A stretch of 63,456 nt of DNA, the filler included, from Hausera hauseri (lineage: Eukaryota): the NCBI GenBank assembly GCA_046269625.1. It is 10 parts of 10 records of this genome, joined end to end, with 100 filler letters (N's around TTAATTAATTAA, not from the genome) between each part and the next. Parts side by side here need not be neighbours in the genome. Positions count along the whole stretch, not along the records: positions 54,232 to 63,456 come from JBJURY010424364.1; 9 more parts are not named here. One strand, written 5' to 3'. Of this stretch, positions 16,613 to 63,456 are shown one piece after another. The notes beneath the pieces are model-generated. The model searched no databases and was not told where the DNA came from. It saw nothing but the letters and a program-made list of their open reading frames with translations. The translations under genes were made by a program, and so were the position numbers. Each line of letters starts with the position of its first letter. Position 1 is the first letter of the stretch.

Positions 16613-19600
16613 GAGTGGACACCGTGAAGGATTAAAATCATCAAGGGAATTATATGAAGGCTCGAGGGTAGAGAAGTTAGAGTTGGGATTTGAAACAATG
16701 CTGTTATCCTGGTCATTGTCAACAAAGAAAGCTGGCTTAAGATTAGAAATGCGTACGTTTTGATGTTTGTCCTTGCTTAAAATGGTAGCGGTGTGCGAAG
16801 AAAGGTTCAGTAATTTGTAAGGGCCAACGTATTGGGGCCAAAAACCAGAAAGTGACGGATCTTTCAGCCATACAAACTTGGCTGAGTATAAGTCCTCTAG
16901 AATATAGGATTTATTGTTGTTAGAGACGAAAGAATGAATCTGAGCTGACCTCGACGAAGTGAGATTGTGCTGCACGAATGTTTTCGTCTGTAAAGTTGTC
17001 TTTGAGATCAGAAAGTTCAATTAAGGCCCAAATTGGAGTCCCAAACAGTGCCTCAGCTGGAGCACAGCCCGTGGTGGTGGAGGAAGAATTGAACAAGAGG
17101 AAGAATTGAGTTCCGGTTATGTTTGTTGTTTGCCAGGATTTTAAGGAAATCTTCATGGTGCGATGAAATCTCTCGAGAAGACCATTTGCTTGGGGATGGT
17201 ACGGCGTCAGCTTCAAATTGCGGACCCTGGTCCGTTATGATATGACGTGGTGAGCCAAAACGGCTGACCCATATCTTGATAAATGCATCTGCTACTGAGT
17301 CGGTGTTTGTTGATGGAAGCGGAACGGCTTCAGGCCAGCGGGAAGCGCGATCCATTATGGATAAGATATATTGATAACCATTGTCGGAAGGTAGAGGACC
17401 CACAAGATCCAAATGCACGGTTTCAAAACAATAAGTGCAAGGGAAGTGGTAAAGTGGTGGTTTGAGGTGTTTGTGGATTTTATATTGCTGAAATGCTACA
17501 CATCCTTTACCCAGATCTGTACATCGGTACGCATAGTTGCCATACAACGTGGCGTTGCAAAAGATGAAATGGAGCTTTTGAATCCGGATGATGAAGAGAG
17601 TGAAAATGAGTGAAAGCTGTCTTCTGTAACGATGGAGCTGAATAGTTTTCTTGTTAGTCGAGTTGGAAGTGTCATAAGCAATGTCATCAATGATTTCAAC
17701 AGATTTAAAAGTTTTAAAATATCAGATGATGGCTGATTGCTTCTCAGGACCTCAGAGGATAAAATTGGCTGAACAGTAATTAAGTTAACCGACCGTGAAA
17801 GAAAGTCCTCTACTAAATTTTCGGTGCCTGAAATATATTTCATGGAAAAACTAAACGTCGACAGGTATGATATCTGTCTTTCTTGTCTGGGTGAGGGCTG
17901 TTTCACAGTCATTATGTGAAGTAAAGGCTTATGGTCGTTTTGGATGGTAAATTGGCGTGAAAGAAGCAAGTACTTGAAATGCTTTACCTTTAGAACTACA
18001 GCCAAGAGCTCACAATCGAATGTGGAGTATCGGCTTTCCGGTTGCGTAAGCTTTCAGGAATAGAATTCTAATGGTTCATCGATGCCACTATATATTTGGT
18101 GTAATATTGCACCAGTTGTTGTGGTTGAGGCATCGGTAGTTAATATTAGTTCAGCGTTTGGCTTTGGGAATGCCAAGAATTCCACAGTTTTCAGACCTTC
18201 ATGAAGGCGATCAAAATGATTTACTAGGTAGGAAGGCCAATGGATTAATTGTCTTTTCTTCCCAGATGAGAAGTGTGCGAAAAGTGCCGTTAGTTCGGAC
18301 CAGTGTGGGACGTATTTGTGTACGAAATGCAGTGTCCCTAGAAAACTCCTTATATCGGTAGTAGTAGTTGGCAACGTCACATTTTTTAATTATTGTAAGC
18401 GATCAGGCTGGGATGAATGCCCTTTGGGAGTATTTATGTGGCCTAAGAAGTTGACACGTTTCTGGAAGAAATTGTATTTGGCGAAATTAACTTGCAGGTT
18501 GTTTGATGCAATCTGTGGAAAATGATCCTAAGGTGCTCATAATGTTGTTTAATAGAGCTGGAAGCGATTAATATGTCATCTGTGTATGGATGAGCGAAAT
18601 TAAGACCAGAAATAACGGTGTAAATGTGGCGCTGAAAGGTCTGAGATGCACTACATAGGCCGAAAGGCATGACGATGTACTCGTAAAGGCCAAATGGTGT
18701 GATAACAGCAGTTTTTGAAATGTCCTCAGGTGCAACAGGAATTTGATAATAGACCTTGTGCAGATCAATGGTAGAATATGTATTGGTGTTGATTAAGCTA
18801 TAAAGTATATATTTAATGAGTGGTAGTGGATAGGCATCTGTAATAGTTAGATTGTTTAATTGTCGATAGTCGCCACATGGCCTATAGGTACCATCTTTCT
18901 TTACCACTACATGAAAAGGAGAAGCCCACGGTGAATTTGAAGTGCGAATGATGCTAGACCTTTCCAGTTCATTAAATTCCTGTTCTACAGCTTTACGTCT
19001 GCGTGGCGACAATGGTCTGACCTTTTGTTTGATAGGCCTCTGATACTCTGTTACTATGTCATGATAATTTGAGGATGAGAGCTTGAAGTTGATGTCTCTT
19101 TTAACTATGTGAAAGCATGACGTCGTGATGTACCATTTAAAATCGGAGTTTAGAGATAAGAATGAATAAGGCATATTATAAGAAAGAACAGCTTCAGTGA
19201 TTGGCGAAAAGCAGCTGGCATCGCTACTGTCGACGCCTAATTTGGATTTTTGCTTTAGAATAGATTTATGATTGTCGTTCACAATTGAAATATTACCGAC
19301 TTTATCGGAACTAATTTTTATAGATGACAAAGCGTTCAACATGTTCACAGATGAGTGCAATGAATTGCTCACTCAGTTGTCTACGAGACACATGTTTGGA
19401 GTTGCAACCGAGTTCCTGCTTAAAAGATAGCCGTATTTGCAATCGACCATTAGATCATGTGTGGCAAGGAAATCTGAGTCTATTATGGGAGATTTAATGT
19501 TGGCCACGTGGAACTTTCAGCCAAACTTATTTGGCAAGTTGGCGAATGTGAAAGTCAGTTCTGTGGTTCCTGCAGCAGGCAACGGTTGACCATGGCAGTG

Positions 19601-22744: not shown

Positions 22745-25275
22745 TTAATTTTACCCTACTATACTTGCACCATATATAAATCATGTTCTGACATCAACAC
22801 TTCGGTTCGTAGACCCTTTCGAATAACTATCAGTTTCTTTCCTTTTCGTTCGTAATATAAAATGTCTCCCTTGTTTTTGTCATTTAAGACGCAGTATTTA
22901 TGTCCATGTCTGTGTAAATGTTTCTTAAATTGTCGTCACTTTGGTATGATACCCCTTTTAGCAAATTTTATAATCTGCTAAATAAATTTATCCTTTCTTT
23001 TTTCTGTGGAGATTTTAATTGCATTATCCATCTTTAAGGCGCGTTGGCGATCTACTATTGCTTCAAGTTGGCTTTTCCTCATTACCGTGATTGCTCTTGT
23101 TTTGGTCTTTAATCTCGATAACGCATCGGCGTCTACATGTTTATTTCCTGGTTTATACTGGAATTCTATATTGTATCTCGATATTTATTTGATCCGTCTA
23201 TTAAGCCTACATGTCAAGTTATTCGTTTGGACTTTTAAAGTCGTAACGGCTTTGTGATCAGTGACAATTATAACTTTCTACATGTATACGTAAACGTTGA
23301 AGTGTCGAAGTGCTTCTTTTACGGCTAGAGTTTCTAACTCGGTAACAGAATCATTTTTCTCGGCATTCTTTAAGGAACGTCCTCCATTAAGCTAATTCCT
23401 CATATTCTCTTTTCTGTGCTAATTCATATCCAATGCCTTCTTTACTGGCGTCCGTTTTGATTATGAAGGGTAAGTTAAAGTCTGGGTACCGAAAACAGGT
23501 TCGATTGTTAATATTTTCTTCATTTCATCGAAGGCCTTTTGTTTGATATGCATCCATTTCCATTTAATTCCTTTTTTAAGTAGACAATACAAAAGCGCAT
23601 TTATTTTTGAGTTGCCCGGCACATAGGTGGCGTAATAACCACAGAGTCCTAGACAGTGCCTTAACTCCTGGCTAGGATTGTGGTTCCATACAATCTGATA
23701 TTTTGTTTAATAACGACTTATTTGATTTCGATTCGCCTTCTCCAACTATATGGCCGAGGTATGATACTGCGTTCTAAGCCCATTTGCATTTCTTTGGATT
23801 TAATTTTAAGCCGGCTTGTTTTAGCCTCATTAATGTGTGTTCAATATCCCTTAAATGTTCCTCTTTGGTCCTTGATGCAATCATTACGTCATCCAAGTAC
23901 GCGAAAGCATGGTCCAATCCTATCAACATTTTGTTCATCATTCTCGTAAAAATAGCTGGTCCGGCAGTGATGCCGAATGGCATAACGTTAAATTCGTAAA
24001 CACCATCATGGGTCTTAAACGCTGTCGTGTATCGATCCTCATCCTCGATTTCCACCTGCCAGTATCAGGATTATAGATCCGGAGTGGTAAACCATTTTGC
24101 TCCTAAGAGTCTGTCTAAACTTTAGACTCTAAAGCCTCTTTTACTGATGGTAAGGGGAAGGAATCCTTCATCATAAGGTTGTTTAATGCTTTGTAGTCAA
24201 TATAAAATCGATGTTTTGTAGTGTCTTTCTTTTTATCCATGAGGATCGGTGAATACCAAGATCTACAACCAGGTCTAATTATATCGACCTTAAGCATTTG
24301 TTAGACTTCCTTCTTTATTTTAGGCCTTAGTGAATGTGGCGGAGGATACCATTTTGGCATCTTCTTTTCTTCTAAGTCTATTTCTTCGTTTGAACCAGGC
24401 TTTTTCTTGAGTGGAATATTCAGTTTCAATGCTTTCGCTCTACCGATATCTTTTTCGTCCTTAGCAATAACCGATTTATAGCGGCATAATAATTCATAGA
24501 ATCGACAATAAGACTCAGATGAAAACTTAGTTTCGACATGAGGTGGAAATTCGGCATACTTATAAGGCTTTTCTTCAATAGTTATAGACGACACTCTGTA
24601 CGTATCTCCTAGAGTAGTATAAGCATAAAGCTTTACGGGTTCCGGTGCGCTATTTGCTATCCTGATTGGTATATGACCGGAGTGTACTTTTGTCAGTACG
24701 TTGCTGAGCGTTATCTTTGGATTTAAGGTCTCCTTTGGTTCAAAATATACCGGTTGATCGTCATCTTTTTGAACTTGAGCATAGATTATTATCTCTGTTT
24801 GTGGCGGAATGTCTTCATCGACTGGTATCCACACTTATCCGAACTTCCAATCTTTAGCGTTTCTTATACCTTTATTTGGTCTGATTTCTATCAATTTTCC
24901 TGTTTGCAAGTAGATCGCTATATTTGGTAACCTTTTCAGTAGATCACACCCTAAAACTACGTCGTCGGTTAGCTGTTCCATAACTGCGAATTCATGACGA
25001 AAAAACTGTCCAACTATTTGAACTTCCGGGTTCCATTTGAACATCGGTTTCAACATTTGGCCAAAAGCTCCTGTACTTCCTGGATCTTTTGTAGACGGTG
25101 TGTATAATTGTCTCCTGAGCGTTTTAGGTACTGAATCATTTTTAATGTTAGACATCGCCGACCCTGTATCAATTAATGCATAAACTTCCCAGTCTTCAAT
25201 AATGATTTTAGCGAAAGGTCTTCCTTCTATTACTGTTCCGAAACAGTTTGATGCTACTTTTTGGCATTTAGTCAC
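22745..25275 (-). pseudogene. Gypsy pol (protease, spacer, RT, RNase H, start of integrase), copy A of the glycoprotein-bearing family
   Basis: ALIDTGSAMS protease motif; RFYIDYKALN, DSFPLP, TAFKT.DGVYEFNVMPFG, YLDD; IKTDAS and TDHKAV RNase H motifs; colinear with 58632-61200. Confidence 0.92.
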
Positions 25276-25859
25276 CGGTATTTTATGTCTATTGATTCGT
25301 ATTTTTGGGGAGGATACTATATTCTCTGCCAGTTGGGGTATAATTCATTGTTTTCGATGTTTAATTCTTCCGCTTCATGAGTACTAATTAATGTCTCTCG
25401 GTTGTTAGTGTGCGGTTCTATGTTTCGGAAAAGTTCTTAACTTCGAGTTTCCCCAGACAGGTGGTTTAGTCTCTATATTACGAGGTTCCCTCGGGAAATA
25501 CAACATTCTGGGATCATCTCCGGACTGTCGGTAGCACATTTTCCGTAAAAGGCCGTAACGTTTCGTTCTTTCGTAAGGGTCTTCTATATTAACCATCCTT
25601 TTATAGATTTCAGTCTGGTATAAACTCGTGGACCGGTTATCACAGTCTTCGTAGACTGGAGCGGTAGGGGATAGCATAGGCAATGATGCTTTAATGACCG
25701 AATACGTCTTATATCTGTTTGTTCCTGAAGGTACTTCTCCTCCCTTAGGCTCGTCGTCGTCTGAATTATTTCTTCGCTTATTAGGTTTTGTAAATTTCCA
25801 CTTGTACAAGAAGATAGGCCTTTCTTTTCGTTTACGATTATAATAACCGACATGACGTT

Positions 25860-27640
25860 CTGCGTCCTATTTCCCTCTATCTTCTTCATATGCTTTCAAA
25901 AACTTTCCAAAGAGCGTTATGATTTCAGTCAATATTTTACATGAAAACCAAATCAATGTAAATATTTCATACCCATTTATTACTGCTTGGATGGCTGCCT
26001 TAATCATTTGTATCAGGAAATATATCGCTAAGAATCCGGATGCGGCTTGGCCAAAAATCAAAAATCTTTCCGAAATTTTGTAGAGTATTTCCGTAGTTAC
26101 TCGCTGATAATGGTTTACACAAGTAAGGATTCCAATTTGGCCTGATATCGTGTATTGTCTACTACTGAGGCCATGGCTCGGTTTAATTCATGTGTTCGTT
26201 GGTGCGGAAAAGCGAGGAATTGTCTAAAAGCTTCGATATCCTTAAGCCTGTATATGCCTTTCGACGAGGTATCTTGAAATTTGTCGTTTGTAATTCCTTT
26301 CGCAAGATTTGTTCCTGTTAATTTATTTGGAGTGGTAGTAATACCTCCATTTGGTAAGCTAGCCCAGTCTTTTTCACTACGTCTAAACATAGGTTCCCCT
26401 AAGCTTGCCTTACAATCTTTAAGAATAGTTGGTTGGGTCGCATTATCCAATAAGACTGTCGTCAACGTTGTAGCTAATCTGGGAGTATTCTGATAAATAG
26501 CAAGGAGTTCCTGAATGCAACGTTTTTCTTCTACGTTGATGGGTACATCTCTCTTTTCGCATTCATAGGTTAGCAGTACCTCGCCCGTGACCCGACCGAA
26601 AATTCCCTCTCTCATAGGAATTATTAGAGAAGCCAATTTTGGGTTGGCATATATAAGAGCCACTTTCATCCTCATGATCTCGGTATCTAATTTACAATCA
26701 TTTGTTATCATTTGTGATATAATTCAGTTATTCCAACTTGCCCTTTGTAATAGAAGTAATCGTCTCTGTTTTTCAGATAGTCCTCGATTCGGACATCCTG
26801 CGTTTCTAGTTTGCAAGTCTTCACATTTATTTCCGTTTCTGCGACAAAAAATGTCTCATAATTAGTAGCAAACATCACTACGTCACAACGAGAGATAATC
26901 TCTTTTTTAATAAATTTCAGTCTATGCTGATCCAAGATTAATATAGTGTGTTTAGGATGTTCCGATACGTACTCGCGTGTCCTCGAGTTAGTATCCGATT
27001 TATCCACGTATCGCTTTCCGGTAGTTTCATTAGACTTCAGTTCTTTAATTTTAATAAAATTACAACTTCTTCCAGAGGGAGGTTCCCATATTGTACCAGA
27101 ACCTCCGAAAGCACAGGTTTCGTCTTGTAGATGACACTTTTGATTCTTGGTGTATAACTTGGTGACGCTATGGAATATTACTTTCTGTGATTGCATTTCC
27201 GATTCGTAGAAATCCACGACTACTACATTCGCTTGTAGTCCTTTTCCAGTGTCGTATTCTGCTCCGTAACAATGTCCGCTACGCATATCTAACCTTCCGA
27301 CCACTACTTTGTATACCCTAATTATCTTCCCTGGTTGCATTTCTAACTGCATACTGTCCCATTGTACTCTTCCAGTCTCCTTGGCTTGTTTGCAGTGCTG
27401 TTGTTCTAAGTTCATCGGAATTAGAGCAGTTGTTGGTTTGATTATTGAGGAATGCCCGTGTACTAACCCACATTGAAAAATGCTGCGGGATCGTCTCAGC
27501 ATACATTCCACTCCATCTAAAGATATCAGTTCTTGTTGTTGGTACAGGAAGTAATTCTTTTCTTTTGTTTCTAGCTTGTGCGAACTGGCGTCTTCGCATG
27601 CTTCTAAATCAGTTAAGGAATATCTCTTTCCTAGTTTGAA
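25860..27640 (-). pseudogene. Chuvirus-like (class III, gB/G-fold) envelope glycoprotein, copy A, upstream of the protease
   Basis: YSLTDL.AC, IFQCGLVHGHSS, CKQAKETG, CYGAEY, GEVLLTYEC, CIQEL..Y, KGIY and a C-terminal hydrophobic TM segment; 2 frameshifts; colinear with 56320-58110. Confidence 0.75.
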
Positions 27641-30159
27641 TNNNNNNNNNNNNNNNNNNNNNNNNNNNNNNNNNNNNNNNNNNNNTTAATTAATTAANNN
27701 NNNNNNNNNNNNNNNNNNNNNNNNNNNNNNNNNNNNNNNNNTTTTTCTTGTAATTAATCACTCATACGATAATAAAATCTAGATTAAAAAATAAATATAA
27801 AAAACAAACATTACCTGTGTAATGACTTTGGTCAAAATTCCTTTGATCTTGAACATGAGAAATACCAATAAGGCTTAACGGACTCGATGGCAAGGTGGAC
27901 AAATCCATTGGCAGAGGTGCAGCAGCTGTGAAAAAGTCATTTCAATATGGTTGTAAGTTTTTATTTGGACCAATAACTCAGGTGTTCTCAGTCACTTACA
28001 AAACATTTTGAACAAGTGCTGCATGCTTTTTAAAAATCGTATGTATTTTTCAATATATCATCCTTGTTAAAAAAAGTAAACCTTAAACAAGTCCTTGAAC
28101 AAAATAAAACGCCTTTAAGAACTACATTCAAACTTAGATAAAAATTCACAATAACCACTGCTTATATAAGGTTAACAATACATGATTACTGTATGTTGGA
28201 AATTTTCAAAATAAAATACTTTTTCCAGACTTGAATTCCTGCTATGTGGGTAGTATTGTTTTTTTCCCTTACAATATCTGAAAAAGATTTATTATATATG
28301 TTTATTATAAAAAGATGTTTACTATAAAAATAAAGGCCTTTAACATAAATGATAGATCTTGAATATGTTTGCCAACACTATGTGAGCTTAAAGCAAGATC
28401 GCAGCCAAGGATGCAGGCTGACACAAGGCGAAAAATAATAGGAGAAAATACTATTTTAAAAAGAGGCTGACGTGGAGGCAGAATAACAGAACTACAAAAC
28501 AGAGCAACTTAGGAAGGGAGCCAGGGTAAACTATAAAATGGACAGATGTGGACATAGAGAAAGAAAACCAGATAAATAGGGCAAAAAGAATATAAACAGG
28601 TGTGAGGAGAGACAAAGAATGATCAGGACAAGACAGAGTTGACTGAGGAAATGATAAGAATGAAACCAGAACACAAACACAAGAGGGAAACAAAGTATGA
28701 AACAGACTATGACACACTGTATGTTGTTAAATAACTTGTAAAAATATATATTTAATTTAAAACATAACACCTAACAGAATATTGGTCCAATACTACCACT
28801 TTTTATTAACAGAGTTTATTAGTTTGTTGCTGTTTACTTGTCTGTTGAGAGGCCAATACATGAATCTAAGATAAGGGATTAAGCCTGGAGGACTGGAATT
28901 GATGATCCCTGGTCTACATTTTCCAAAACAAAACAAAACATATCTTTTTATTCTTGCAGAATTCTTTATACTAGATATTTTATTAGTGGTTTTATCATTG
29001 CTAATCAGCGTTATTTGTGTTTTTTGTGCGTTGTCTAGAGTTTGTAAAGTAATTTTGTGTGTGAACCTCTGTATGGATGCTGCTGTGGCACCTGAATTTC
29101 CCCTTGTGGGACAATAAAGGCTATTCTATTTTTTTAAATTCTATTCTGTTAATCTATCTGAGCAGTAGGCTGTCATTCTACTGTAAAAACTGTTCATGAA
29201 ACCAAATTTTACCATTTTATATCAGCTAAAATGTATTTTTGATCTTGTTTTGAGATTGATGTACTGCACAAGAGCAGAATATGTTGGATTATTAATCTTG
29301 TTAACCTGACAAGATTTCTTTATTCTAAGGAATCTTACCAACTGCCGATTATTATTCATTATTCATCTGAAAAGATTCAGAGTATAATCTAGTTTATTAG
29401 TTTATTTAAGTGGAGACCCAGGCAAACTGGACCCNNNNNNNNNNTTTTGTTAATTTAAGATAACTTCCATTCAGTGGCACAAATTTTTTTGCTTTTATAT
29501 CTTTTAGAATTCAGTCAGTGTTTCACTTCATATGATTCATAATTAACCATTACACGACTGGACGAAGTGACACTCAGGTCTTACTGCGCATGTCTGATCA
29601 GGAAATCTGTGATCCATCTGTCGGGTCTAGTAATCAAACCCTGAATATGCATTAATCCTAAACCATTTATTGGCTTGAATAAACTGCCCTGATGGCGTGG
29701 CTTGGTGTTAGATCAACAGATTACAGGTGTTGACAAGTTGAAGGCTTGTTCAAGCTCAATTTTTCTGATATCCTGGATTTATAAATCTGACTGACTGAAG
29801 AAATTAGCCCCAGAAATGTTAAAAAGTAGCTGATTTTCTTATAACCTTGTGATGACATGTAGCATCTGTCTATTTTCTTTCCACTTTAAACATTTGTTTT
29901 GTATCTAGTTTAGGTATAGAGCATCTCAGGCAAACATTTTTGGCAGGTTGAGACACACACCCTTAGAAGTGGCCTTTTGAAATTACTTAACTGCCATACT
30001 TATTGTTTGTTTGCAGCCACATCAAACAAACCCAATGGTACCAAAGATCTGAAAAAACATTTTTTTCAGTTTTTTATTTTTATTAGGAACTGAAATTTCA
30101 ATAAATTAGATTTTAGAAATTTCTGTGCTGTAATAGAACCTTTAAACAATATATTATAC

Positions 30160-37027: not shown

Positions 37028-37449
37028 TTAATCGCTTTCATGGCTTTCATCTCTTTCAGCGGTCTCACCTTCAAGTGTTTTCAGGTTTGGGAGTATTTCA
37101 AGGGCAAAATTTAACCAGTTACTCCTGTTTGCCTTCTCCAGAGGGTTTCCCTTAAAAGCCAGGTCCACCAAATCCGGCAGTTTTTGAAGCTTCCTAAACT
37201 CTATAATATCGTCGATTTTATTGTACTGTATATCCAGGATTTTCAGTTTCTTACAGGCACAAATTCCTTCCAATTGTTTAATAAAATTATGAGAAATGCA
37301 CAGCCACTCTAATGTGTCTGCCACTTGTTCCAGCCCAACAAGTGAACTTATTCTATTGTCGTTTAAAATCAATTTCTTCAATGTCCGAAGAGGCCCAAGG
37401 TTTTGTATTTGAGAAATGCGGTTTGCGGGAATATGTTCCGAGAGCCTTT
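37028..37449 (-). CDS. Leucine-rich-repeat protein, divergent axonemal dynein light chain 1 (DNAL1)-like, 5'-truncated
   Basis: L.GLEQVADTLE.L.IS.NFI..L.GI...KKLKIL...N......EF.KL..LP.L.DL.F.GNPLE..NW....LP.LK.L.G follows the DNAL1/LC1 pattern. Confidence 0.7.
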
Positions 37450-37638
37450 NNNNNNNNNNNNNNNNNNNNNNNNNNNNNNNNNNNNNNNNNNNNTTAATTA
37501 ATTAANNNNNNNNNNNNNNNNNNNNNNNNNNNNNNNNNNNNNNNNNNNNCTGAACATGATTCACGATGTGAACTGAGGGTTAAAGATTGTTCGACTCGAA
37601 GGATTACAATACTTGACAGGGAAACCAATCGAGGAAAT

Positions 37639-40100
37639 TTAGAGCTCATTTATAACTTTTGAATCAGGGTCCATTGAATCCGATAATTTCTTTACGAACT
37701 TCTGTTCCTGAAAACTGAAATTTGGATCGTTTCCCATTTCTATCAATTTGGTATGGAAATTCTGGTCTGACCCGGCCATCCATTCTTTAGATTTGTGTAA
37801 AAACCTTATTTCATCCGTTAACGTGTCTCGGTATCCTGGACAAATGTCCAAGATTTCAATGTCTTGAACAGAAATTTCCTCGATTAATTTCCCTGTCAAG
37901 TATTGTAATCCTTCGAGTCGAACAATCTTTAACCCTGAGTTCACATCGTGAATCATGTTCAGTTTTTCCATAAAGTTCGTCTCTTCGATCAGTTTGTAGA
38001 TTTCCTCCATTATCAATGCTTCTCATTCCTTTTCCACAAATTTTAGTCGTCGTAGCGCTTCAAATTGAGTACGGATGTCTATTTCTATGTGCATTGTGGC
38101 TAAATCATGTGTACTTTCCTCTAGTTGTGTCTTTACCATTGGCTCGCTTTGCGGAAATTCTGTTTTGCGATCTTCTACCAATTTACTTAGTCGTGTTACT
38201 AATTCGGACCATTTCGACAGTTGATTTGCGATTACAGGTTTTGCCACTATGGCTTTATCTAGCATCTTATAGGCATCTTCTACTTATCGTCTGGTCCTTT
38301 TAGGAAACTCATAATTCGACCGACATAACTAAACTCGTCCCTATGCTCGTCCAATTCTACGATACAAGCCTCAATTGTATATTGAGTATCCTCGTTGTTT
38401 GGGAACATAGTTCGATTTCTCAAACTATAAATCTGTGCTCGTGTTTCATTTTCTATTTTATACGACTCTCTAAGTTCGTATATCGTCTAGGTACGGCGAA
38501 CGTGAGTTTAATCATCTCCATTAAGGGAGGAATATCTACTGGGTCTATACCCAATATTTCTAAATCGGTATTACTTCGATGGTTAACAGCTTTTCCTTAA
38601 GTCGTTTAAGCATTGCGTATAGAATTTCGTCCATCATACGTTTTAAATTACGGACTACTCTCTTCAGTTTTTGGTTTTCTTCCAAAGTCGATAATAGCGT
38701 TTGAGCCTTAGTAACTTTTACATCGACACTTTCTTCATTCTTATTTCATCCTTCCGAAAATTCTACTCAGCTTTTAATCCATGATTCCAATTATTGCTTC
38801 CATTTTAACAACGTTTTGGTTGAGACTTCTTCGGGTTGTTCTAAGTCGATTGCTTCCGAAAACTTCACTTCGCTACGCAGTTTCAAAATTTTATATAACT
38901 TCTTAGCGAATTGTTTTTATTTTCCGGATATGTCTACTTGTTCGCTAATCTGCTTGAGATTTTCCCAATTTTGTTGTAATATTTTGGGCTCTAGACATCT
39001 AATTCGCATTTTCTTTAGCTCATCGGCGTTTATCCATGAACGTCGGACTTTCCATTTCTTTGGATAGAAATCGTTACTGTTTGTTGTTTCTTCCTCACTA
39101 GAAGGAAGTGGGCAAATCTCGTTAATTTCATTAATTAACTCTATGGGTTCTGCTACTTCGGCGGGGGTGTGCGGACCAATTTCCGGTATACTCGAACTAT
39201 GCTCCGTGTCGCCTCCTACAACGACGTTTGGGTTTTCCGTTTCTTCATTCTTCTCTCTGGTTATTTTGGAGCGTAAACGGCTTCTACGTTTCTTTTTTAA
39301 TGAAGGACTATTGCCTCTATTTTTCGTAATTTTAAGTATCAGTGGCTCTATAAACTCTTTTTCCGCTGCGTCGTCTTCAGTAAGCTTAGCTTCTTTTTCA
39401 ACTGTAAACTCAGGCTCTGCGTCTAAGTCGACTGTATCGATGTGCCTTGTTTATCAGATGGCTTGTTGCTCGTCGGAACACTCTTCTTCCGTGTCATGTC
39501 CATTCGTTTTGGTGCTATCGTGTGCACGCATTCAGTTTCCGGTCCTACTAAGCCGTGATATACTTCTATTAATCTTAATTTATCGCCGTATTCTCTTCTA
39601 GCCATAAGAATTTGTACGTTAATGGTATCCGGCTGAGCATCTAAGAATTTTCTCAAATCGTGTATAACGATGATAGTGTCTGTATCTCTACGAACACCAT
39701 ACTTTGCTTATAGGTTCTAGTTGATTCTAATCATACTAGTCTTATTCGGTTCGGTAAATGAAACGCTATACGGATTTGTACATGACCTTAAAATATGTCC
39801 TTCTTTGCCACAAGTAAAACAAACCAAATTCCCGTTTCTGCCGACTCTCTGTCGACCGTCTTCGTTCACCCGTGACTTAGATCTATTTATACCCTTATTA
39901 TACTGGTTTGACAAACTGCACATTATCAGTGTTTCTTCTATCGTTATTTCGGTTATCGCCGTTTTGATTCGAGTAGTTAGAACCTTTATAATTTCCTCTA
40001 TTCCTATCCCAGTCTGATCTGTTCGTATTAGTATAATTACTACCTCTGCCATTTCTGTACCCGCCATTATTATATCTGTCCACTTTCCTCACCTCCACCT
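37639..40100 (-). pseudogene. Gag C-terminus with CCHC zinc knuckle followed by a long unknown region; 5' part of the glycoprotein-bearing Gypsy family
   Basis: N/R/G-rich segment then CFTCGKEGHILRSC (CX2CX4HX4C); the peptide at 37639-38016 aligns without gaps to the translation of 54235-54610. Confidence 0.7.
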
Positions 40101-41398
40101 TGACGATAAAATATCCTATTAAACTTGTTTTTAAACATGTCCAGCTATCTGGAATACTGCATTGTTATTAAGCTCCATTATTAATTACATGTCTGTATAT
40201 CAATTTTGTTTATAACAAGTAAGCATGTCAAAAACATTTATTAACGCATAACAAGTGATAAAAGTATTACAAGTGCACCTGTAAGAATACTACATCTAAG
40301 TAATACATTTCTCTGTCTTCTCTTAAATTTTTTCTTAATGTTTCTTATACATATTGTTCCAACTACAAATTCTATATAGTCTTCTTTTGTTATGGGATGA
40401 TACCGTTCTAATTCTTTCAGGAATTGAATTCAATCAATTTTTCCACCACAAATCTCATTTGTAAGTTTCTTAATTTCAGCTCATAAATCCATTTTTCTAT
40501 TTAAACTATGTATTTAACGTTTGTTTATCAAAAAGTCAAAAATAATAATAAGAAAATTTATGAACACAACACTTAACAAAACTTAATTTCAACCATTTTC
40601 CGGATGGATTGACTTTTCCTATCTTTTTCTTTTAATCCTTTGATATACACTTTAACATATGTCATTATGTATTGGTATAGATCCATTGCTTATATATCGG
40701 AGCCCATGAAATCTTTGAATTTTACTGAGTTTGACCCAAAATAATGCTGTCTCTTATCATTTAACTTATCAGGGCTTATTCTAAGTGCTTGTAATTCAGA
40801 AGCCAGTTTTATGTAGTTCTTATCCCTAATGTCCTTGACATGGTATCCAAACTGAGTCTGTCGAATACATACTGGATCCTGTAATTCTACTGTTTTTGCA
40901 CCCTTTAGGAAACTTATTTCGTATCCCATATAGTTTCTTGGAGCCTTCATTTGTGCTATCTTCACTTGAGCAATCTTCTACTCTTGGCTTTTGAACAATT
41001 GATTAGCTGTCATGGGCATCACACGTACCATTTTACCCTATCATCTCCATAAGGATATGTAATATCCAATTGCTCTTTCAGCTTTCTCATGGAATGGATC
41101 AAATATTTAATCTTTCTCTTACAGTTTGGAAAACCTAGAACCTCCTCTACCGCTCGGCCAAGTGATACATCAGTATTTTCAATGTTGCGATTCTAAAAAA
41201 ATGTAGATAAAGACAAGAGAGGAGCACAAAAACTCACCATTCGTGGACGTGAATTTTGAAATAATGAAAATTATAACCATGTCAACGCGTACTATCTTCT
41301 ACGCACAAATCAGATGTGAACAATTTGAATGAACCAATCAGATTTTTCCTATTTTAATGCGCTAAGTCAGTTGGAAAATACCTTTCATTTTTACAAAT

Positions 41399-44935: not shown

Positions 44936-45419
44936 GATAGTAGTAATACATGTATAAAACATGTATCATTTGCCTGCCGCCGTTGCCGCCGTTAATATAG
45001 CGTAAAGAAGAAAAACCCCTGCCGCCGTTAATATAGCGCAAAGAAGAAAAAACCTTTTAGACACCGGCAATGTTTATGACGTCATTCTGTAGCGGTGGAT
45101 CGTTGACCTCGCGAAGCTGTAGGAGTCCATCATCACTAGTGGCCTTCTGATGAAGCGTCAAACCTATAGTGGTGGATCATCATCTTTGTCTATTAATGCC
45201 CAAGACCGGTTGTAGGAGCTCTGCCAGGTCTATATTCCCAGTCAATCAAGCCTTGTAATTATTGTAGCATCCCTCTGTGGAGCATGGGAGCTGTAGTGAT
45301 CGAGCCCTTCTTAGACTGTATTTCATAGTCGAAAGAGAGAAAAAGAGAGACAAACCATCATCACTTCCTAGAAGATTATACAGTGATCAAGACCTTCAGT
45401 GGTAGAGCGTAAGGGTGAA

Positions 45420-45525
45420 AGAGAGACAAACAGACAGACAGACAAACAGACAGAAAGAAAGAGAGACAAACAGAAAGAAAGAGACAACCAGAAAGAAACA
45501 GAGAGAGAGAGAGAAAGAGAAAGAG
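45420..45525. repeat. GA/CAGA microsatellite
   Basis: Seen directly. Confidence 0.85.
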
Positions 45526-45583
45526 CAACTTGCGGTTTAAGTACAAATTTATAAGGGTTTATACGATCACAACATTGACAATT

Positions 45584-46194
45584 ATGGATCCTAGGTGGAA
45601 ACATCCGTTTACTGCCCTTATCGCGGGACCGACCGGCTGCGGTAAGACCGTTTTCGTCCGCGAATTTTTGGCGTATCTTCCAGACATGGTCGTCCCCGTT
45701 CCAGAGGAGGTTATATGGTGCTACGGGGAGTGGCAAGTGACTTATGAAGACATGCAAAATATTCAATTTCACGAAGATCTCCAAGACGTAGAACAATGGC
45801 GAGGGGACAAGAGAAGATTGGTGATTATAGATGACCTAATGTCCAAAACCGACGACCGAGTAACCAAACTTTTTACAAAGGGAAGCTACCATCGGAACCT
45901 TAGTGTCATGTACATTGTTCAAAACCTATTTGAAAAAAATAAGGAACAACGGACCATATCTCTAAACTGGCATTACATCCTTTCTTTTCAAAAATCCCTG
46001 GGATGTTTCGCAAATTACCAATTTGGCCAAACAAATGTACCCGCAGTTCATACCTACAAGAAAGTTTTAAGGAAGCGACCACCAAGCCTCACGGTTATTT
46101 GCTACTCGATCTTCGCCAGGAAACACCTGAACACTTGCGAATACGAAGTTCCATATTTCCCCACGAGAGACCAGTCGTATACGTACCAAAGTAA
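45584..46194 (+). pseudogene. Polinton/Maverick A32-like packaging ATPase, frameshifted
   Basis: HPFT.LIAGPTGCGKT (Walker A), WCYGEWQ, LVIIDDLM (Walker B), LFTKGS.HRNLSV.YIVQNLF, RTISLN; C-terminus (EATTKPHGYLLLDL..TPEHLRIRSSIFP) is in another frame. Confidence 0.9.
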
Positions 46195-46195
46195 C

Positions 46196-46347
46196 ATGGC
46201 AGATAAAATGAAGCGACATGCAGAAATGTTGCGCTTCTTGATCGAGGCGAACCCGGCAGCCTTCAAGGCCGTCTTTAAATCGGCGTCCCCGAACCTTGTT
46301 CCGCGCTTTGTGAGTGTTGCTACAGCGTGTTAAAAGGTAACGTTCCG
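46196..46347 (+). pseudogene. Truncated Polinton small conserved ORF that follows the ATPase
   Basis: MKRHAEML..L..A.P....A..K.A...L...LCECCYSVLKGNVP motif (one frameshift); cut off by a tandem repeat. Confidence 0.6.
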
Positions 46348-54231: not shown

Positions 54232-56320
54232 ACGATACTAAATGATATATATAAAATGATTGAAGAAACAAAATTTATGCGAAAGCGGAATGCGACTTGC
54301 GATTTCCATCCGCGGTTGAGAGATGTCCGCCTGGAAGGAATACGATGGTTGATATCTAAACCTATTGAATAAATATCGATCAGAGATCTTAAAACCTTAG
54401 ATTTTTGTCCCGAAAATCGGTCAATCGTTGAAGAAACGGTGAAATTCTTACACCAGCCACAAGGATAGATGGACGGAACGAATCAAAGGCATCATGCCGA
54501 ACTAATTAAAATAAAGAACGACCGCCAGCTTAATTTTGAAGAGACCAAATTTGTAAAGAAATTCTTAGACGCAATCGATCCGGATTTAAAGAGTATTAAC
54601 GAGATGTACGAATTAGCATTATTAATGGCGAAATTGTCAGAAATTAATGACGAAAAATTAAGACAATTGTTGCAACAAATACAACATGTCGAAGAAACTT
54701 GCATTATGACAAAACAGAGAGCGATGAGATTAAACGAACTAGCTAAAGAACTCGAAGCCTATAAAAGCAAATACGCCCTTACAGAAGCCGAAAAAGCTGA
54801 CAAGTTACAATTCATTCAAAGATGGCAAAGAGATGTCACATCTGAGCTAACGAAATATCAAGAAAAAGGGCTAATTTCACGCAAAGAATTATGTTCGTTG
54901 TTAACATTGCTCCACCAAACGTCCGCTAATGGACGATGTTTTCGAACGACGAAAATGATCTAAATACAACAAAAACTACAAGAACTCAGAAAAATTACGT
55001 GGACCGCAGGTGCAGACCGGTCAACTGGTACACCATTGAGGAGCTATCTACTGCCGGATAATGAAAATAAACTAGATTGGGAAGCCTATTTAGACACAAT
55101 AATTGCCGAGAATCCGAAAACCCCAATACGATTAGAGCAAATGGAGATATATTCTCCGGACCAAAGGTTCAACGTCGAAATGCTTCTGGACCCGGTACAG
55201 ACCGAGAAAGATTTAAATCAATTAATTGAAGTGAACCTCACCGAAAATCAACTAAGACACCTAGTTCCCACTTTAACTAAACTAGCTAGCAAAGGTACGA
55301 CTTCTAGTACGGTACCTAAGCTTTTACTGAAGGAATATGCTAAAATCTTAAAGCAAAGGCAGAGGAAATGATCCCAGTAAAGATAGTATCGGACTGGATA
55401 GACGAAAAGGAACAAGAGTTCACTACGCACTCCCTTGTAAAGGATGTATTACTGTGGATAAAGAATAACGGATACGCCCATGAGCTGAGCTATAGACTTT
55501 ATTTCCGAGGGAGGGTACTACACGAGTAGGAATTATTAATAAAAGTCGGAATTATCCCAGGTGAAATAAACCGGTTAGTGGTAATCACCACTATCGACGA
55601 AACAAAAGAAGAGGCCTTAAGGAAGGCTAAGGCCGAACAGCAGGTAGGACGAATAATAGGAGTCCGAAATGCAGCAGTATATTTCGAGTACCTACAAACG
55701 AATGAAGATAATGAGCAATGTGATAAAAATTTAGTACCGATCGATGGCAGTATACCTGTTGTAACAAAACAGAAGCGCCCTGTCGGTAGGCCACGGAAGA
55801 TATGAGAAGAAATCGACTATATTAGAGACTTAATTAGGGAATTGAAGCAGATGTCCATACCGACCGTTAGCGCGGATAATAAGGAACTAAACGAAATTAT
55901 GAAAAATTTGATACGAATAGTAAACCACTCTAACCTCGGTGGTGATATATTAGACGAGAAGGGGAAGGCCATAGCAGATGCCGCAAAGGCCATGAAGATC
56001 CTTCGGTGTAAATCGACCAAAAAGTACTTTAAGCGATGAAATGATAATCGAGAAAATTATGGTAGAAAATACCTTAAAGGAACTGAGAAAAGTGTTGCTA
56101 TATCTGGCCATCAAAACCAATCCGAATAGAGAAAATGAATTTAACAAGGCTATTAGTTTAACAAGAAAGGCTGACAGGAAAATACCTCGAGAAGTGAATT
56201 GGTCTACGTTATTCGAAAAAGAGGAAGAACATCAGAGTGGATTCTTCTTCCATAACAATAGATTCGGAGATCTGCTACGAAATATAACTGGAAATCGCAG
56301 AGGAAATGAGTCAAAGTGGT
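54232..56320 (+). pseudogene. Unknown polyprotein region upstream of the glycoprotein (helical/coiled-coil domain, ubiquitin-like domain, basic linker)
   Basis: Long reading frame broken by isolated stops and 2 frameshifts; homologous to 37639-38016 (minus strand). Confidence 0.6.
55368..55586 (+). pseudogene. Ubiquitin-like domain (one in-frame stop)
   Basis: LVKDVLLWIKNNGYAHELSYRLYFRGRVLHE*ELLIKVGIIPGEINRLVV aligns without gaps to ubiquitin residues 22-71. Confidence 0.55.
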
Positions 56321-58110
56321 TAATTAACTTTTTGACTCTGATGATGTTAATAAGACAAATGGGCCAAAAATATTCGTTAACGGACTTGGACATGTGCAAA
56401 GATGTGAGGCCCCACAGATTAGAAACAAAAGAGAAAAGTTATATATTATATCAACAACGCGAAATAGTTACCTTGGGTGGAGTACAATGTATGTTGTGGC
56501 GATCTAGCAGCATTTTTCATTGTGGACTGGTACATGGACACTCGTCAATAATTAAGCCAACAACCCCATTAATTACGATGAATTTAGAACGTCAGCATTG
56601 CAAGCAAGTTACAGAAACGGGGCGAATAAAATGGGACGGTATGGAACTGGAAATGCAGCAAGGGAAAATAATAAGAGTGTATAAAGTAGCTGCAGGAAAG
56701 CTGGACATGCAAACCGAACATTGTTATGGTGCGGAATACGATACCGGAAAGGGATTAGAGTCAAACGTCGTGGTAGTGGATTTTTACGAAACCGAAATGC
56801 GTATTCAGAAAGTGATGTTTCATAGCGTTACTAAACTTTACACCGAGAACCACAAGTGCCACATTCGGGATGGCACATGCATGTTTCGAAGTTCTGTAGT
56901 AATTTGTGAACCTCCAGCAAAGACCGATTGCAACTTTATCAGAATTAAAGATCTTAAGTTCAACGAGACGACAGGAAAACGATACATAAATAGCACGAAA
57001 ACTAACTCTAAAACACGAAAAGATGTAGCCGAACAGTCCACACCTACTATACTAATTTCTGATACTTATGGATTAAAATTTGTAAAGAAAGCTATGCTCA
57101 CAAGATGGGACGTCGTAATTTATGCTACCAACTACGAAGCATTTTTCGTAGCCGTGACAGAAATAAACGCCAGAACGTTCAAACTCGAGACTCAGGATAT
57201 CCGGATTGAAGACTATTTGAAGAACAGAGACGACTATTTCTACTATAAACGACAAGCCGGAATAGCCGTGTTATACCACAAAATGATAACAAAAGACTGC
57301 AAATTGGATTTGGAAATCATGAGAACTAAACTAGCTCTAATATACGCAAATTCGGAGTTGGAATCACCAATAATTCCGATGAAGGAAGGTGTTTATGGAC
57401 GAGTAACAGGAGAGGTCCTATTGACGTATGAGTGTAAGAAGAAAGACGTACCGATTAATGTGGAAGAGAAGAGGTGCATACAAGAACTTCCAGTAATATA
57501 TCAGGACGTACCGAGATTAGTAACACCAATTACAAGAGTAATATTGGCTAATGCTACTCAACCGAGGATTTTAAGAGACTGTAAAACCAGGTTAGGAGAG
57601 CCGATGTTCAGACGTAGCGAGACCGACTGGGTAAGTTTACCGAACGGTTGTATTATCGCAGCACCTACCAAACTGACAGGAACAAACCTCATAAAAGGAA
57701 TAACCGATGGTAAATTTCAAGATACAGCCGCAAAAGGTATTTACCGACCAAAAGAAGTAGAGGCGTTTAGACAATTTCTCGCTTTTCCCCTCCAACGTAC
57801 ATATGAATTAAACAGAGCGATGCATACAATATTAGAGGACTCGCGCTATTAGGCAAAATGGGAATCATTACTTGGCGTTGGTTATTACAAGAAGGTAACT
57901 ACAGAAATATTATACAAAATGTGTGGAAGATTCCTGATATTCGGACAAGCCGCGTCACGATTTCTAGCGATATATTTCTTAATTCAACTGGTAAAAGCTA
58001 TAATTCAAGCAATTATAAATGAATACGGGATATTCACCTTGGCTGGATTTTCGTGCAAAATTTTAGCTACTATTATTACTCCTTTTGGAAAATTCTTAAA
58101 AGCTTATGAA
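56320..58110 (+). pseudogene. Chuvirus-like class III fusion glycoprotein, copy B (within ORF 56041-57852 plus in-frame 57853-58270)
   Basis: Internal hydrophobic signal WLINFLTLMMLI, Cys-rich ectodomain (IFHCGLVHGHSS, GEVLLTYEC, CIQELPVIY..LVTPITRVI, KGIY), N-x-T sequons, C-terminal TM; single stop at 57850 where copy A has Gln. Confidence 0.78.
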
Positions 58111-58631
58111 GAGAGTAAATGGAAAACGGATGTGGAGCGACATGTTGGCTACCATAATCGAAAACGTAAAAGACACATATTCGATTATAGACAGAAATTC
58201 ATAGTCAGTAAGACACGAAGAAATAATTCCGATGACGACGAGCCTAAGGGAGGAGATGTCATCCCAGGCCAAGCAGGCACAAAAACTACTATGTTATGAA
58301 ACTACCATTATCAATATTCCCGCCAACGGCACTTATATATAAAGACTGCGACAAACAGTCTATGAGCTCGTACCAGGCAGACATTTATCGGAAGCCGTTT
58401 AGTTTAGAGGATCCTTACAAAGGAACAAAACGCTACGGGATATTACGCAAAATCCACGAAACATAGAGGACCTCGGCTCCACGCCATAAATCAGCGGTCG
58501 ACGACCACGATATAATTTACTCACCTAGAATATCTAAGCCAAACGAAACGCAATTTACGCGAAGCTGTGAGGCACGAATTCTTCGAAACCCAGATGTTCA
58601 GCCGCCAGTTAGAAACCAAAGAGTAAAAAAG

Positions 58632-61600
58632 GTGAATAAAACGAATAACGAACTATACCCAATTGGAGAGTTAAGACAATTAGTCGATCATCCAGTTAGA
58701 ACCACTGAAGTTACCATCAACGGCTACAAAGTGTCTACGATACGACAACCCAAGATAGCACCAAGCTATTACGGTACAGTAATCGAAGGCAGATCCTTTC
58801 CAAAGATTCAGTTGGACGATTGGGAGGCTTATGCACTAATAGATATAAGTTCTGAAATATCACTGATAAAATTTGATTTGATACCACAATTCTTACGGAA
58901 ACAATTATATCCACCTACTACGACAGACCTAGGAAGCATTGGAGCTTTCGGACAATCCTCGAAGAGTAAATTCCGATAGAAACCAGAAATTCACATAATG
59001 GGACAATCTTTTCGTCATGAATTCTCAGTAATGGAGCAATTAGCAGATGATGTAGTGTTAGGATGTGACTTACTAAGACAATTACCCAATATAGCAATGG
59101 ATTTCAATGCAGGCAAGTTGATAGAAATTGGCCCAATAAAAGGAGTCAAAACTACCAAAGATAGAAAATTTGGAGAGATGTGGATTCCCGTAGACGAAAC
59201 CATATCACCCAGGACAGAAATTCTAATATATGCTCAGATACGTCAGGATGACGATCAGCCAATATATTTCGAACCAAAGGAATCGCTTGATCCAAACCTC
59301 GTGTTCAGCAATGTTTTGACAAAAGTACCAACAGGCCGTGTGCCAATCAGAATAGCAAATAACGCACCAACTCCGATTAAACTGTACGCCATTACCACTT
59401 TGGGACACACGTGTATAGTATCATCAATCACTATTGAGGAAAAACCGTATAAGGATGCCAAATTTCCGCCCCACGTGGAGACTAAGTTTTCAGCAGAATC
59501 ATATTGTCTATTTTACGAATTACTCTGTCGTTATAGTTCGATTATCGCGAGAGATGAAGAAGACATTGGCCGAGCCAAAACCTTTAGGCTTACAATTTCG
59601 CTTAAGAAAAAGCCCGGATCTAACGACGAAATAGACTTAGAGGATCAAAAGATGCCGAAATGGTACCCTCCTCTACATTCATTAAGGCCAGAAATGACCA
59701 AAGAGGTTGAACGGATGTTAAAAGCCGACATAATTAGACCAAGCTATAAATCTTGTTATTCACCGATACTGATGGTTAAGAAGAAAGGTACAGTAAACAC
59801 CGATTTTGTATCGACTATTGAGCGTTAAATACACTTATGATGAAGGACTCTTTTCCGTTACCATCGATAAAAGAAGCTTTAAACAGGCTTTCAAGAGCCA
59901 AATGGTTTACCACTCTAGATTTAATATCTGGATATTGGCAAGTAGAGATAGAGGAGGAAGATCGTTACAAAACGGCATTTAAGACACACGACGGTGTATA
60001 CGAATTTAATGTTATGCTATTTGGAATAACTACCGGACCAGCCATTTTTACGCCCATGATGAATAAGATGCTATCGGGACTGGAACACGCGTTCGCCTAT
60101 TTAGATGACGTTATGATTCCCTCGAAAACGGAAGACAAACATTTAAAGGATATTGAAGGTACACTCATGAGGCTGGAACAATCTGGATTAAAATTAAATC
60201 CAAAGAAATGCATAGAGACTCAGAATGTTGTATCTTACCTTGGACATATAGTCGGAGAAGGAGGATCGAAGCCGGATAAGTCATTATTAAGTAAGATATC
60301 GGATTGTATGGAACCTCAGAATTAGAAGAAATTAAGACACTGGTTAGGGTTGTGTGCGTATTATGCTACTTACGTGCCAGACAATGCGAAGATAAACGCA
60401 CCTCTGTATCATTTACTTAAAAAAGGGATCAAATGGAAATGGACCGATATAGAACAAAAAGCTTTTGACGAAATGAAAAAAATTCTGACTAGTGAACATG
60501 TTTTAAGATATTCTGACTTCGACCTACCATTCATAATCAAAACAGACGCCAGTAAGGAAGGTATCGGATATAAATTAGCTCAGAAACGATAGTATGAGGA
60601 CGTTCTCTAAAGAAAGCTGAGAAGAATTATTCCGTAACAGAGTTGGAAACATTGGCAGTAAAAGAAGAACTGCGACATTTTAACGTATACGTCTATGGAC
60701 AATATTATAATCCTTACTGATCATAAAGCAGTTACGACTTTGAAAGGTAGAGCAAAAATCCAACGTGTAGACTAAACAGATGGATAGATGAAATTTCACG
60801 TTATAATATTGAATTCCAATGCAAGCCCGGAAATAAACACATCGACGCCGTTGCCTTATCGAAATTTGAAACTAAAACAAGCGCAGTTACTGTAATGAGG
60901 AAAACACACCTCGAAGAATTAGTAGATAGACAGCGGACTCTCGTGTTGGATAAAGCATTAAAGATTGCTGTCAAACAGAGTAAAGACAAAGTTATGCAGC
61001 AAATTATCAAGTACGTTGATACCAACGTAACACCAAAGGGTCATCAGTTACGGAAACACCTACGACGATATGGTCACAGGTACTGCGTCACTGGAGATTT
61101 GAACCACGAAAATGTGTTATACTACGAACGAAAAAGACGAAAATTTTTAGTCATACCAAAAGGATTGCGTTCAGAAGTATTAATGGCTGAACACGATTCG
61201 TATTTAGCCGGACACATGTCGTGGAAAAAGACCTAGAAAGAATCTTGAATAAATATTATTGGCCAAGCATTTACATTGATGTGAGAAATTGGGTAAATGT
61301 TTGCGATGTATGCGCAACCAAACAAAGGAAAGTGAAAAACTACGTCGCCTAACTTAAACCTATCGACGTTCCCGATAGACCAATGCAAGCAATGTCTATG
61401 GATATTGTAGAGCCATTACATACAACTCATATGATCAACAAATACATTTTGACCTGTGTAGATCGATTGACTCATTTCGTCGAGCGTATAGCGTTATTAG
61501 ACCAAAAGGCCAAGACCTTGGCAGAAGCCGTAGTCCGGAAAATCATTTGCACATACGGCCACCCGAAAAAATCTTGACAGATCGCGGAAGAAACTTTACA

Positions 61601-62163
61601 AGCGAATTGTTCGATAACATTACCAAAATTTTTGAGATTGAACGATTAACTATCACAGATTATCATCCAAAATGTAATGGAATGGTCGAACGAATGAACG
61701 CGACAGTTATACAAATCTTATCGACAGTAGTCGCAAAAGACCAGAAAGATTGGGATGAGTTCTTAGAAGATGCACAGTTTGCTATTAGTACTACTCCACA
61801 TCGTGCGACAGGATTCACTCCATTTTTATGATGTACGGAAGAGAAGCTGCGCTTCCTACAGATCTAGGACTCATTCCATATACAACACAAACGGAGGATT
61901 TAGAGCAAAATTTTGTCGAAGTATTACAATCAAGATTGCACAAGTGTTGGGAGATAGCCAAGGAATTATCTAAAGAATACCAGGAACAATTCAAGAAGCA
62001 ATACGATAAGACAGCTAAACCTCACGATTTAGAACCCAGAAACTGGGTTTATGTACACTATCCAGTAGCAAAGAAAGGCACATCTCTGATGCTTACTAGG
62101 ACAGACAGAGGATCTTATAAGGTTACTAAGGTTACACCAACCAGTTTACATAAAGAAAAGTAA
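58632..62163 (+). pseudogene. Gypsy pol (PR, spacer, RT, RNase H, integrase), copy B
   Basis: ALIDISSEIS (decayed DTG), LDLISGYWQ, YLDD, IKTDAS, HDS..AGH..CDVC, MDIVEP, TDRGRNF, YHPKCNGMVERMN; RT-RH-IN order is Gypsy-type. Confidence 0.93.
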
Positions 62164-62230
62164 CATGGAATAGTTCATATCAATTCAGTGAGTAGTTAAG
62201 ACGGAAATAAGACCAGATAAACGCTATAAT

Positions 62231-63456
62231 TTGCGTTCGAATAAGGTTAATAAGGAAAGGAAAACATCGTCAATCGTAACCAGACAGATATTATATGTAC
62301 AAATAATTCTCGCCCTATCGCTAATCGCTTCTTATATACCCAAGGTGAAATCAATAACTAGAACTGAAAAACTACGATACTCAATGAAAAACAGGGATAT
62401 CCAGAACATGCAACCACTTAGAGTACACGATATGGATTGGAGCAAACCATGTGCATGGTTTGAAGCAAGCAAAGCCGTACAGAGCTATGTAAAATTTCAA
62501 ATAATATTTGTAACTAGATATACGATGGGAACATGTGATTTTCCGTACGGACATCACAAAAGATGTGGTGATTCGGATTTTGGACAAGCCTACGGATACA
62601 GATTTCAAATGTTTTATTCTAATCAGTTTGGAGCTCAAGCTTATATAATTGCAGAACTCGTAATTAGAATGCCCCAACGAAAGGACGTAAGCCAAGCCAA
62701 GACGGACGAAATAATCCGAAGCTCTGACCCGTTTAAAAGACTCTTAGATTATAACATTATGGGGATTTACAGGGAATTAAAGAATCAATGTATACGGATT
62801 GAAATCAAAATAGAGCTGCATGGAGACAGACAAACATCTGTCCGATTTATAGCATTAAATGCTTCGATCCCTACTCTGGTGTATTGTTATCTGGCCAAAC
62901 GCCGATCTACTACCTGTTGTGTAATAAAACTAGGACAAGAGTATCAGTTGCAACTTGATTTGTTTAATACGTACCCCGGAGAGCAAAGCACTTATTTAAG
63001 AGGATATCGTCCGAAAAACGTAATATGAAAACTTCCATCCCCAACCACTACGAGAAAACTGTCCACTGCTCCGAGTACAACTCGCACTACTACGATCGTC
63101 ACTTCAGACGAAATGTCAGGTAGCATACCTATTAAAATTTTGGCAAAAAGCTATAAAATTCTATTTTTCGCTGAAGAGACGTTAAATCAAGACGTCAAAA
63201 TTGAATGTCGCACCCTGCACACTAACCAAGTTATGATCCTGAGGAAGAGTATCCAGGAAACTGAATGTAGATCATTACGATTGCAACACGATTATATAGT
63301 CAGAATCACAGCAAAGGGTAAGAACCCAAAACTTATACAGTGCGGAATCTAGACGACAAGATCGAAGTAATGCAGTATGGAGATCTTAGTACGCAAAATG
63401 CTTTTACCACAAAAGGTTCTATTGAACCAAGCAGTTTACCGACGATAGCCATATTG
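62231..63456 (+). CDS. Putative second surface/env-position protein downstream of integrase (signal peptide, Cys-containing, Thr-rich stalk, FN3-like); internal stops, truncated at window end
   Basis: Hydrophobic ILYVQIILALSLIASYI segment; ORFs 62231-63028 and 63113-63352 share a frame and are joined by PSPTTTRKLSTAPSTTRTTT. Confidence 0.5.

Follow-up and report, generated by a model that had tools for sequence, protein, structure and literature searches.

A candidate integral ubiquitin-like domain in a decayed, env-carrying Ty3/gypsy element from Hausera hauseri

A preliminary description of a 63,456-nucleotide stretch of the Hausera hauseri genome assembly GCA_046269625.1 (hereafter, the window) proposed that a retroelement near its end conceals, behind a premature stop, a ubiquitin-like (UBL) domain within its polyprotein. 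The locus therefore raises the question of whether this stretch is a UBL at all, whether it belonged to a polyprotein or to a gene of its own, and what such a domain might have done for the element. Ten contigs make up the window, set end to end with an identical N-padded linker at each of the nine junctions. The last of them, which starts at 54232, is one decayed retroelement, read on the + strand. The reading that we favor, with a probability of roughly 55%, is that this contig holds a decayed segment of an env-carrying Ty3/gypsy element, which likely encoded one giant Gag-accessory-Env-Pol polyprotein, and that an integral, non-conjugatable UBL within that polyprotein would have offered a docking surface for host proteins of the ubiquitin or SUMO pathway.

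Judged from its sequence, the element is a decayed member of Ty3/gypsy with a chuvirus-like env placed ahead of protease, reverse transcriptase (RT) and integrase (Table 1). The Pfam matches to protease and integrase are sub-threshold and fall in Ty3/gypsy order, and the element as a whole has the protease-RT-RNase H-integrase succession of that group, although the RT-integrase part of this copy (copy 1) is broken by stops and five frame switches. The hydrophobic, signal-like stretch of Env is internal (~56317-56352, located by eye), lying behind ~105 residues of non-signal sequence, and hydropathy places a transmembrane segment near 57961. The long spacer between protease and RT, which gave no Pfam match at E 1, may resemble a degenerate dUTPase. 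Beyond the integrase there are ~400 coding-like codons, which open with sequence of hydrophobic, signal-like character near 62285; this extension had no match in Pfam or the PDB and possibly represents a second surface protein. The CpG observed/expected ratio of the contigs carrying the element is 1.0-1.2.

Table 1. Features of the element in the window and of its two further copies
Feature	Position	Strand	Remarks
Upstream helical/charged segment, same coding track	54256..55371	+	No family; truncated by contig start at 54232
Frame holding the candidate domain	55344..56040	+	Interrupted by two stops; switches of frame at either end (near 55360 and 56000), probably from decay
Candidate ubiquitin-like (beta-grasp) domain, ~73 residues	55368..55586	+	One premature stop, 55527-55529; without C-terminal GG; sub-threshold
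AT-hook-like basic motif	55773..55802	+	Pfam PF02178, E 0.065, 13.6 bits, under the 17.4 cut-off
Env, Monjiviricetes/chuvirus-like fusion glycoprotein	55996..58299	+	Pfam PF24664 at 55996-58296, E 9.8e-33 and 1.3e-12
Linker, retropepsin-type protease, protease-RT spacer	58290..59810	+	Pfam RVP, E 0.0089 (copy 2: E 1.1e-4)
RT, RNase H region, integrase	59822..62163	+	RVT_1, E 4.9e-29 at 59822-60322; Integrase_H2C2, E 4e-4; rve, E 1.3e-3
Coding extension 3' of integrase	62192..63456	+	No family; ends at window edge
Copy 2 (env through integrase), on another contig	22779..27641	-	70-72% nucleotide identity
Copy 3, separate contig, Gag region	37550..41300	-	One CCHC knuckle and a long charged/helical segment

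Two further copies occur on other contigs of the window. In copy 2, the tail of env and the protease share one frame. In copy 3, the charged/helical segment behind the Gag knuckle runs into a homolog of 54256-54606, the upstream segment of copy 1 being 45% identical to copy 3 across 117 aa (E 2e-29). Both contigs stop short of the candidate domain, and tblastn with the frame that holds it located no further occurrence anywhere in the window (lowest E 2.7). At the extreme end of the copy 3 contig is a 91-base inverted repeat (37550-37640 and 37872-37962, 97% complementary), which looks like a fold-back artefact of assembly or library preparation.

The translation of 55368-55586 on the + strand stood up as originally read, with its single stop at 55527-55529. 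The ATG at 55368, which had been taken as the start, is present but is improbable as the real one, given that the frame is open from 55344 and overlaps the end of the frame upstream. The candidate frame runs on to 56040, with its second stop at 55803-55805. A codon model, for which env and pol supplied 2,011 training codons, gave it +11.7 bits, the remaining + frames receiving -12.4 and -5.4, and on account of this score we regard it as real coding sequence of the element. The absence of a C-terminal GG was likewise borne out; the sole GG of the frame is at residue 191, with none following on the domain.

The comparison with ubiquitin used a reference of 96 distinct 76-mers drawn from 117 places in viral contigs. 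All 11 identities of the preliminary description were reproduced exactly in the ungapped register, the 13 other offsets tried giving 1-6, and the identity of the domain to ubiquitin is 15%. Among 126,482 six-frame windows, however, 225 attain eleven identities, as do 76 of the 19,687 that carry no more than a single stop or N, and 18% of 20,000 shuffles attain that number too. By itself, the identity count is no evidence for a UBL and, on the measure used in the preliminary description, is compatible with chance. The core is hydrophobic at 15 of 18 positions, with 13, 15 and 67 being polar, a tally found in 47 of 19,680 six-frame windows and in two of the 2,278 windows along the element's own coding track. 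In the same ungapped register, the positions of the L8-I44-V70 patch of ubiquitin are occupied by Asp, Tyr and Val, and position 68 is Arg. From the stop density, at 13-17.5 missense changes per nonsense change, we estimate that 7-10% of the residues (~5-7 of 74) were altered after the death of the element; part, and only part, of the misfit to a UBL can thus be excused by decay.

A profile match over threshold to a family of the ubiquitin clan was not found. UBX, which we take to be a ubiquitin-fold family, was the only one of 24,736 Pfam families to be reported for the 75 residues searched, at E 0.18 and 12.4 bits versus a cut-off of 21, and the domain had no match among PDB sequences at E 10 or in NCBIfam. 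We also assembled a UBL profile of our own from 41 sequences, namely three ubiquitins and 38 divergent UBLs found by PF00240 searches in archaeal and bacterial genomes (28 of the 29 places in one result list, from which canonical ubiquitin was omitted, plus 10 places from others). The archaeal UBL family that served as profile material came from a PF00240 search in which 26 of 301 genomes had a match; as an observation in its own right, archaeal genomes of one phylum encode a family of ~15 small, stand-alone ubiquitin-like proteins, most of which end in or near GG.

With a hidden Markov model of ubiquitin only, the candidate tile scored -1.0 bits. A local model of the diverse UBLs gave 4.0 bits, making it the second region of 5,058 tiles, and whole-domain scoring gave 2.1 bits, which placed it second by region among 6,318 tiles and at the top of the 971 that contain no more than two stops; this whole-domain score was reached by 48 of 5,000 shuffles. 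True UBLs that had been held out scored 23-79 bits, versus ~2 for the candidate, these controls being Pfam-selected and hence easier cases. When aligned by hhalign to the 41-sequence profile, the candidate obtained P 9e-4 and a probability of 22.8% over 53 ungapped columns, and came out on top of the 483 tiles that contain one stop or none (the next unrelated tile had P 0.005). Corrected for ~480 tiles, the hhalign result corresponds to an E of about 0.4, and the candidate had in addition been picked beforehand as the best-looking stretch. Taken as profile scores, these values suggest that the candidate is, overall, the most UBL-like part of the window, although no single value is significant.

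Structure prediction was of limited help. An unguided AlphaFold model had a pLDDT of 44 and was uninformative, with a helix at residues 20-34 and no recognisable fold. Searched with this low-confidence model, Foldseek found no match at E 0.001, and VIA-align gave a best Z of 3.9, with no ubiquitin-fold entry among the best 50. A second model, guided by the UBL alignment, reached a pLDDT of 86 with the beta-grasp order of elements, a result that is circular and was run without a control; this guided, and hence circular, model had a TM score of 0.72-0.87 to ubiquitin-family chains, with FAT10, ubiquitin, NEDD8 and SUMO fitting about equally well.

Searches for homologs likewise came back empty. 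A word-indexed search with the 223-residue frame yielded none among 447 candidates, and a full HMMER search over 1.84 billion representative sequences gave two matches, both to repetitive, unrelated proteins and both outside the domain. Searches with env, at near and at longer lengths, found 0 of 5,736 and 0 of 4,250, and scans of loci gave 0 of 9 for RT in viral contigs and 0 of 433 for env in metagenomes. The collections searched thus contain no detectable relative of the whole element, so their blank is uninformative with respect to the domain. The one hit of a domain scan in metagenomes (1 of 217) was rejected, since it covers 21 residues of an unrelated protein of bacterial type, 790 residues long, and is put down to chance; matches to ClpX and other PDB sequences (E 0.05-1.6) were similarly dismissed as chance.

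Whether the candidate frame was joined to its neighbours can be judged from the pattern of decay. Across the 3,066 codons of copy 1, a best-path analysis counted 17 stops and 10 frame switches, and five of the 10 switches fall within RT-integrase, a region that has to be read in a single frame. The two switches bordering the candidate frame, near 55360 and 56000, are no more frequent than this background, and the segments that flank the frame lie in the same frame as each other. Because the switch rate matches that inside RT-integrase, the two switches flanking the domain fit decay. The switch between env and protease in copy 1 is absent from copy 2. From the background-rate switches, the env-protease frame of copy 2 and the internal position of the env signal, we infer that the ancestral layout was likely one polyprotein of >4,000 residues, running from Gag (this end being drawn from copy 3) through the helical segment, the candidate UBL, the AT-hook-like motif, Env, protease, RT, RNase H and integrase to the 3' extension. 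The earlier placement of the domain inside a polyprotein is accordingly likely, and is supported by the continuous coding track, the pol-like frequency of switches and the shared env-protease frame of copy 2.

The best precedent for such a layout is Burro/GYPSM1, the giant Ty3/gypsy elements of planarians, as described in a review (PMC6431247). Their polyprotein of 4,873 residues combines knuckles in Gag with an Smc-like region, a Ubi2/SUMO-like domain (PF11976) placed between the Gag-side domains and env, and BCL-2; env precedes the protease in the same frame, and RT is preceded by a dUTPase-like domain. Burro/GYPSM1 elements exceed 25 kb in total, and the copies in the window are contig fragments. 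The H. hauseri element resembles them in having a CCHC Gag, a long charged/helical region, a candidate UBL, env between gag and protease, and the protease-RT-RNase H-integrase order, and also in the size of its polyprotein (>4,000 residues, as pieced together from copies 1 and 3). The in-frame placement of env between gag and protease in Burro/GYPSM1 may have its counterpart here, in the env-protease frame of copy 2 and a gag-to-env connection pieced together across copies 1 and 3. The two differ in that Burro/GYPSM1 has two or three CCHC knuckles, whereas one was found here (in the decayed copy 3), and in that the AT-hook-like motif and the post-integrase extension are not mentioned in the review's account of Burro. 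The MATH, BCL-2, BIR and ankyrin cargo of Burro had no Pfam match in the scanned segments of our incomplete element, the published assignments being partly HHpred-based. Judged by the slot that it occupies, the candidate is probably cargo of the type represented there by the Ubi2/SUMO-like domain. We do not claim membership of Burro proper; the probable likeness is one of Burro-type cargo, for which the precedent is already published.

It is this match in position that tips the balance toward a UBL. That the top UBL-like tile of the window should have fallen by chance in the right frame of the Burro slot is unlikely, at a few per cent by our own estimate, and we consider that the candidate stretch probably is a UBL; the integral UBL domain of the preliminary description is thus upheld as probable by rank and slot, whereas its profile scores remain sub-threshold. 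The alternative that deserves most weight, which we regard as appreciable but the less probable, is that the stretch is real coding sequence of the element with a non-ubiquitin fold (a small alpha/beta domain or a linker), its likeness to ubiquitin being the strongest that chance would offer in 63 kb of sequence. Such a match is what the identity count would allow; moreover, all profile scores lie far under those of held-out UBLs, core positions in strand 2 and the last strand are polar, and the estimated decay accounts for part of the misfit only. Set against this are the first rank among near-open tiles by two whole-domain methods, the true coding frame, the gap-free alignment, and a slot in which Burro carries such a domain. 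An improbable arrangement is that 55368-56040 was a separate accessory gene for a protein with UBL and AT-hook-like motif, expressed by stop-restart or by a programmed frameshift. It would fit the overlap of the ATG with the upstream stop, the presence of another ATG just after the stop at 56040, and the occurrence of Burro cargo as either a subdomain or a separate ORF (PMC6431247). It is at odds with the single frame shared by both neighbours, with switches at the decay background of 10 in 3,066 codons, with the loss of the analogous env-protease border switch in copy 2, and with an env signal-like stretch that lies ~105 residues inside the env frame rather than at its start.

The functions suggested in the preliminary description, a processing signal of the pestivirus type or a built-in ubiquitin mimic recruiting ESCRT, both appear very unlikely for this domain. 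According to PMC8310069, host hydrolases cut behind the ubiquitin inserted in BVDV and CSFV, and these cytopathic inserts share with our candidate the placing of a ubiquitin-shaped unit within a viral polyprotein; they are, however, near-identical captured copies cleaved at the C-terminus of ubiquitin, whereas the domain here is 15% identical and has no GG behind it at which a hydrolase could cut. Ubiquitin fused to Gag drives budding even without GG (PMC2958808), and a role of this kind would suit an element that has an env and whose candidate frame contains no PTAP, PPxY or YPxL motif. The same text ties budding to L8 and I44, which here are Asp and Tyr, with Arg at 68, and the domain would lie at least ~1,000 residues behind the Gag knuckle, as estimated by comparing copies 1 and 3.

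We therefore return to the docking surface of the favored reading. Type II UBLs are integral binding surfaces. What can be read directly is the position of the domain between the Gag-side helical segment and env, and beyond position we infer each step of the mechanism. The accessory block of helical segment, UBL and AT-hook-like motif would have been cytosolic, between Gag and env, and would have been freed on one side by the element's protease and on the other by host signal peptidase acting at the internal signal of env. The UBL would have acted by binding, neither cut nor attached, as an integral type II UBL and uncleaved docking module, and would most likely have recruited partners of the p97/proteasome or SUMO type, so as to manage the accessory block or to blunt host responses. 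A host-response role has been proposed in outline for the Burro cargo (PMC6431247), and no function of UBL cargo is described for any retrotransposon in the literature searched.

The sub-threshold AT-hook-like motif hints that the accessory block reached the nucleus. It would be a rather bold extension, and a doubtful one, to suppose that a true UBL with an AT-hook-like motif 60 residues downstream made up a released nuclear protein, tethering host ubiquitin/SUMO machinery to AT-rich chromatin, for example that of the element's own LTRs, as a defense against silencing. A module of UBL plus AT-hook was not found in the literature searched.

The element also invites comparison with the GAG-ENV-POL elements with gB-type fusogens, known from Platyhelminthes, Nematoda and Bryozoa according to PMC13524379. 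It shares with these errantiviruses an env before pol and a chuvirus-like/gB-type fusogen, and by eye its env ectodomain follows the rows of S. mediterranea in the alignment of that report, both in cysteine spacing and in an insert before the end of domain II. The main text of PMC13524379 differs from the present description in never mentioning "ubiquitin", "AT-hook", "polyprotein" or "Burro". In our search for UBL domains in gypsy polyproteins, which covered few of the subscription journals, PMC6431247 was the only relevant match. If the fold is real, ubiquitin-like cargo of the Burro type extends to a further, distant lineage, which would suggest that GAG-ENV-POL elements of the flatworm type keep this UBL slot as a lasting trait and that it is no peculiarity of planarians. 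The surprise is small, as this copy is itself dead and the precedent is published.

Several observations concern other contigs of the window. The contig at 27742-37449 has a CpG observed/expected ratio of 0.33, versus 0.74-1.17 in the other nine, so that DNA from two organisms may be combined in this assembly; leucine-rich repeats are located at 37028-37498, at the end of this contig. Weak matches to packaging ATPases at 45419-46330 on the + strand (Adeno IVa2, E 7.8e-5; Pox A32, E 2e-4) mark a possible Polinton-like relic. Finally, two Ty3/gypsy pol fragments of another family, with RNase H, integrase and RT, are found on the - strand at 7168-8361 and 17053-19369, and have a 211-base stretch in common at 72%.
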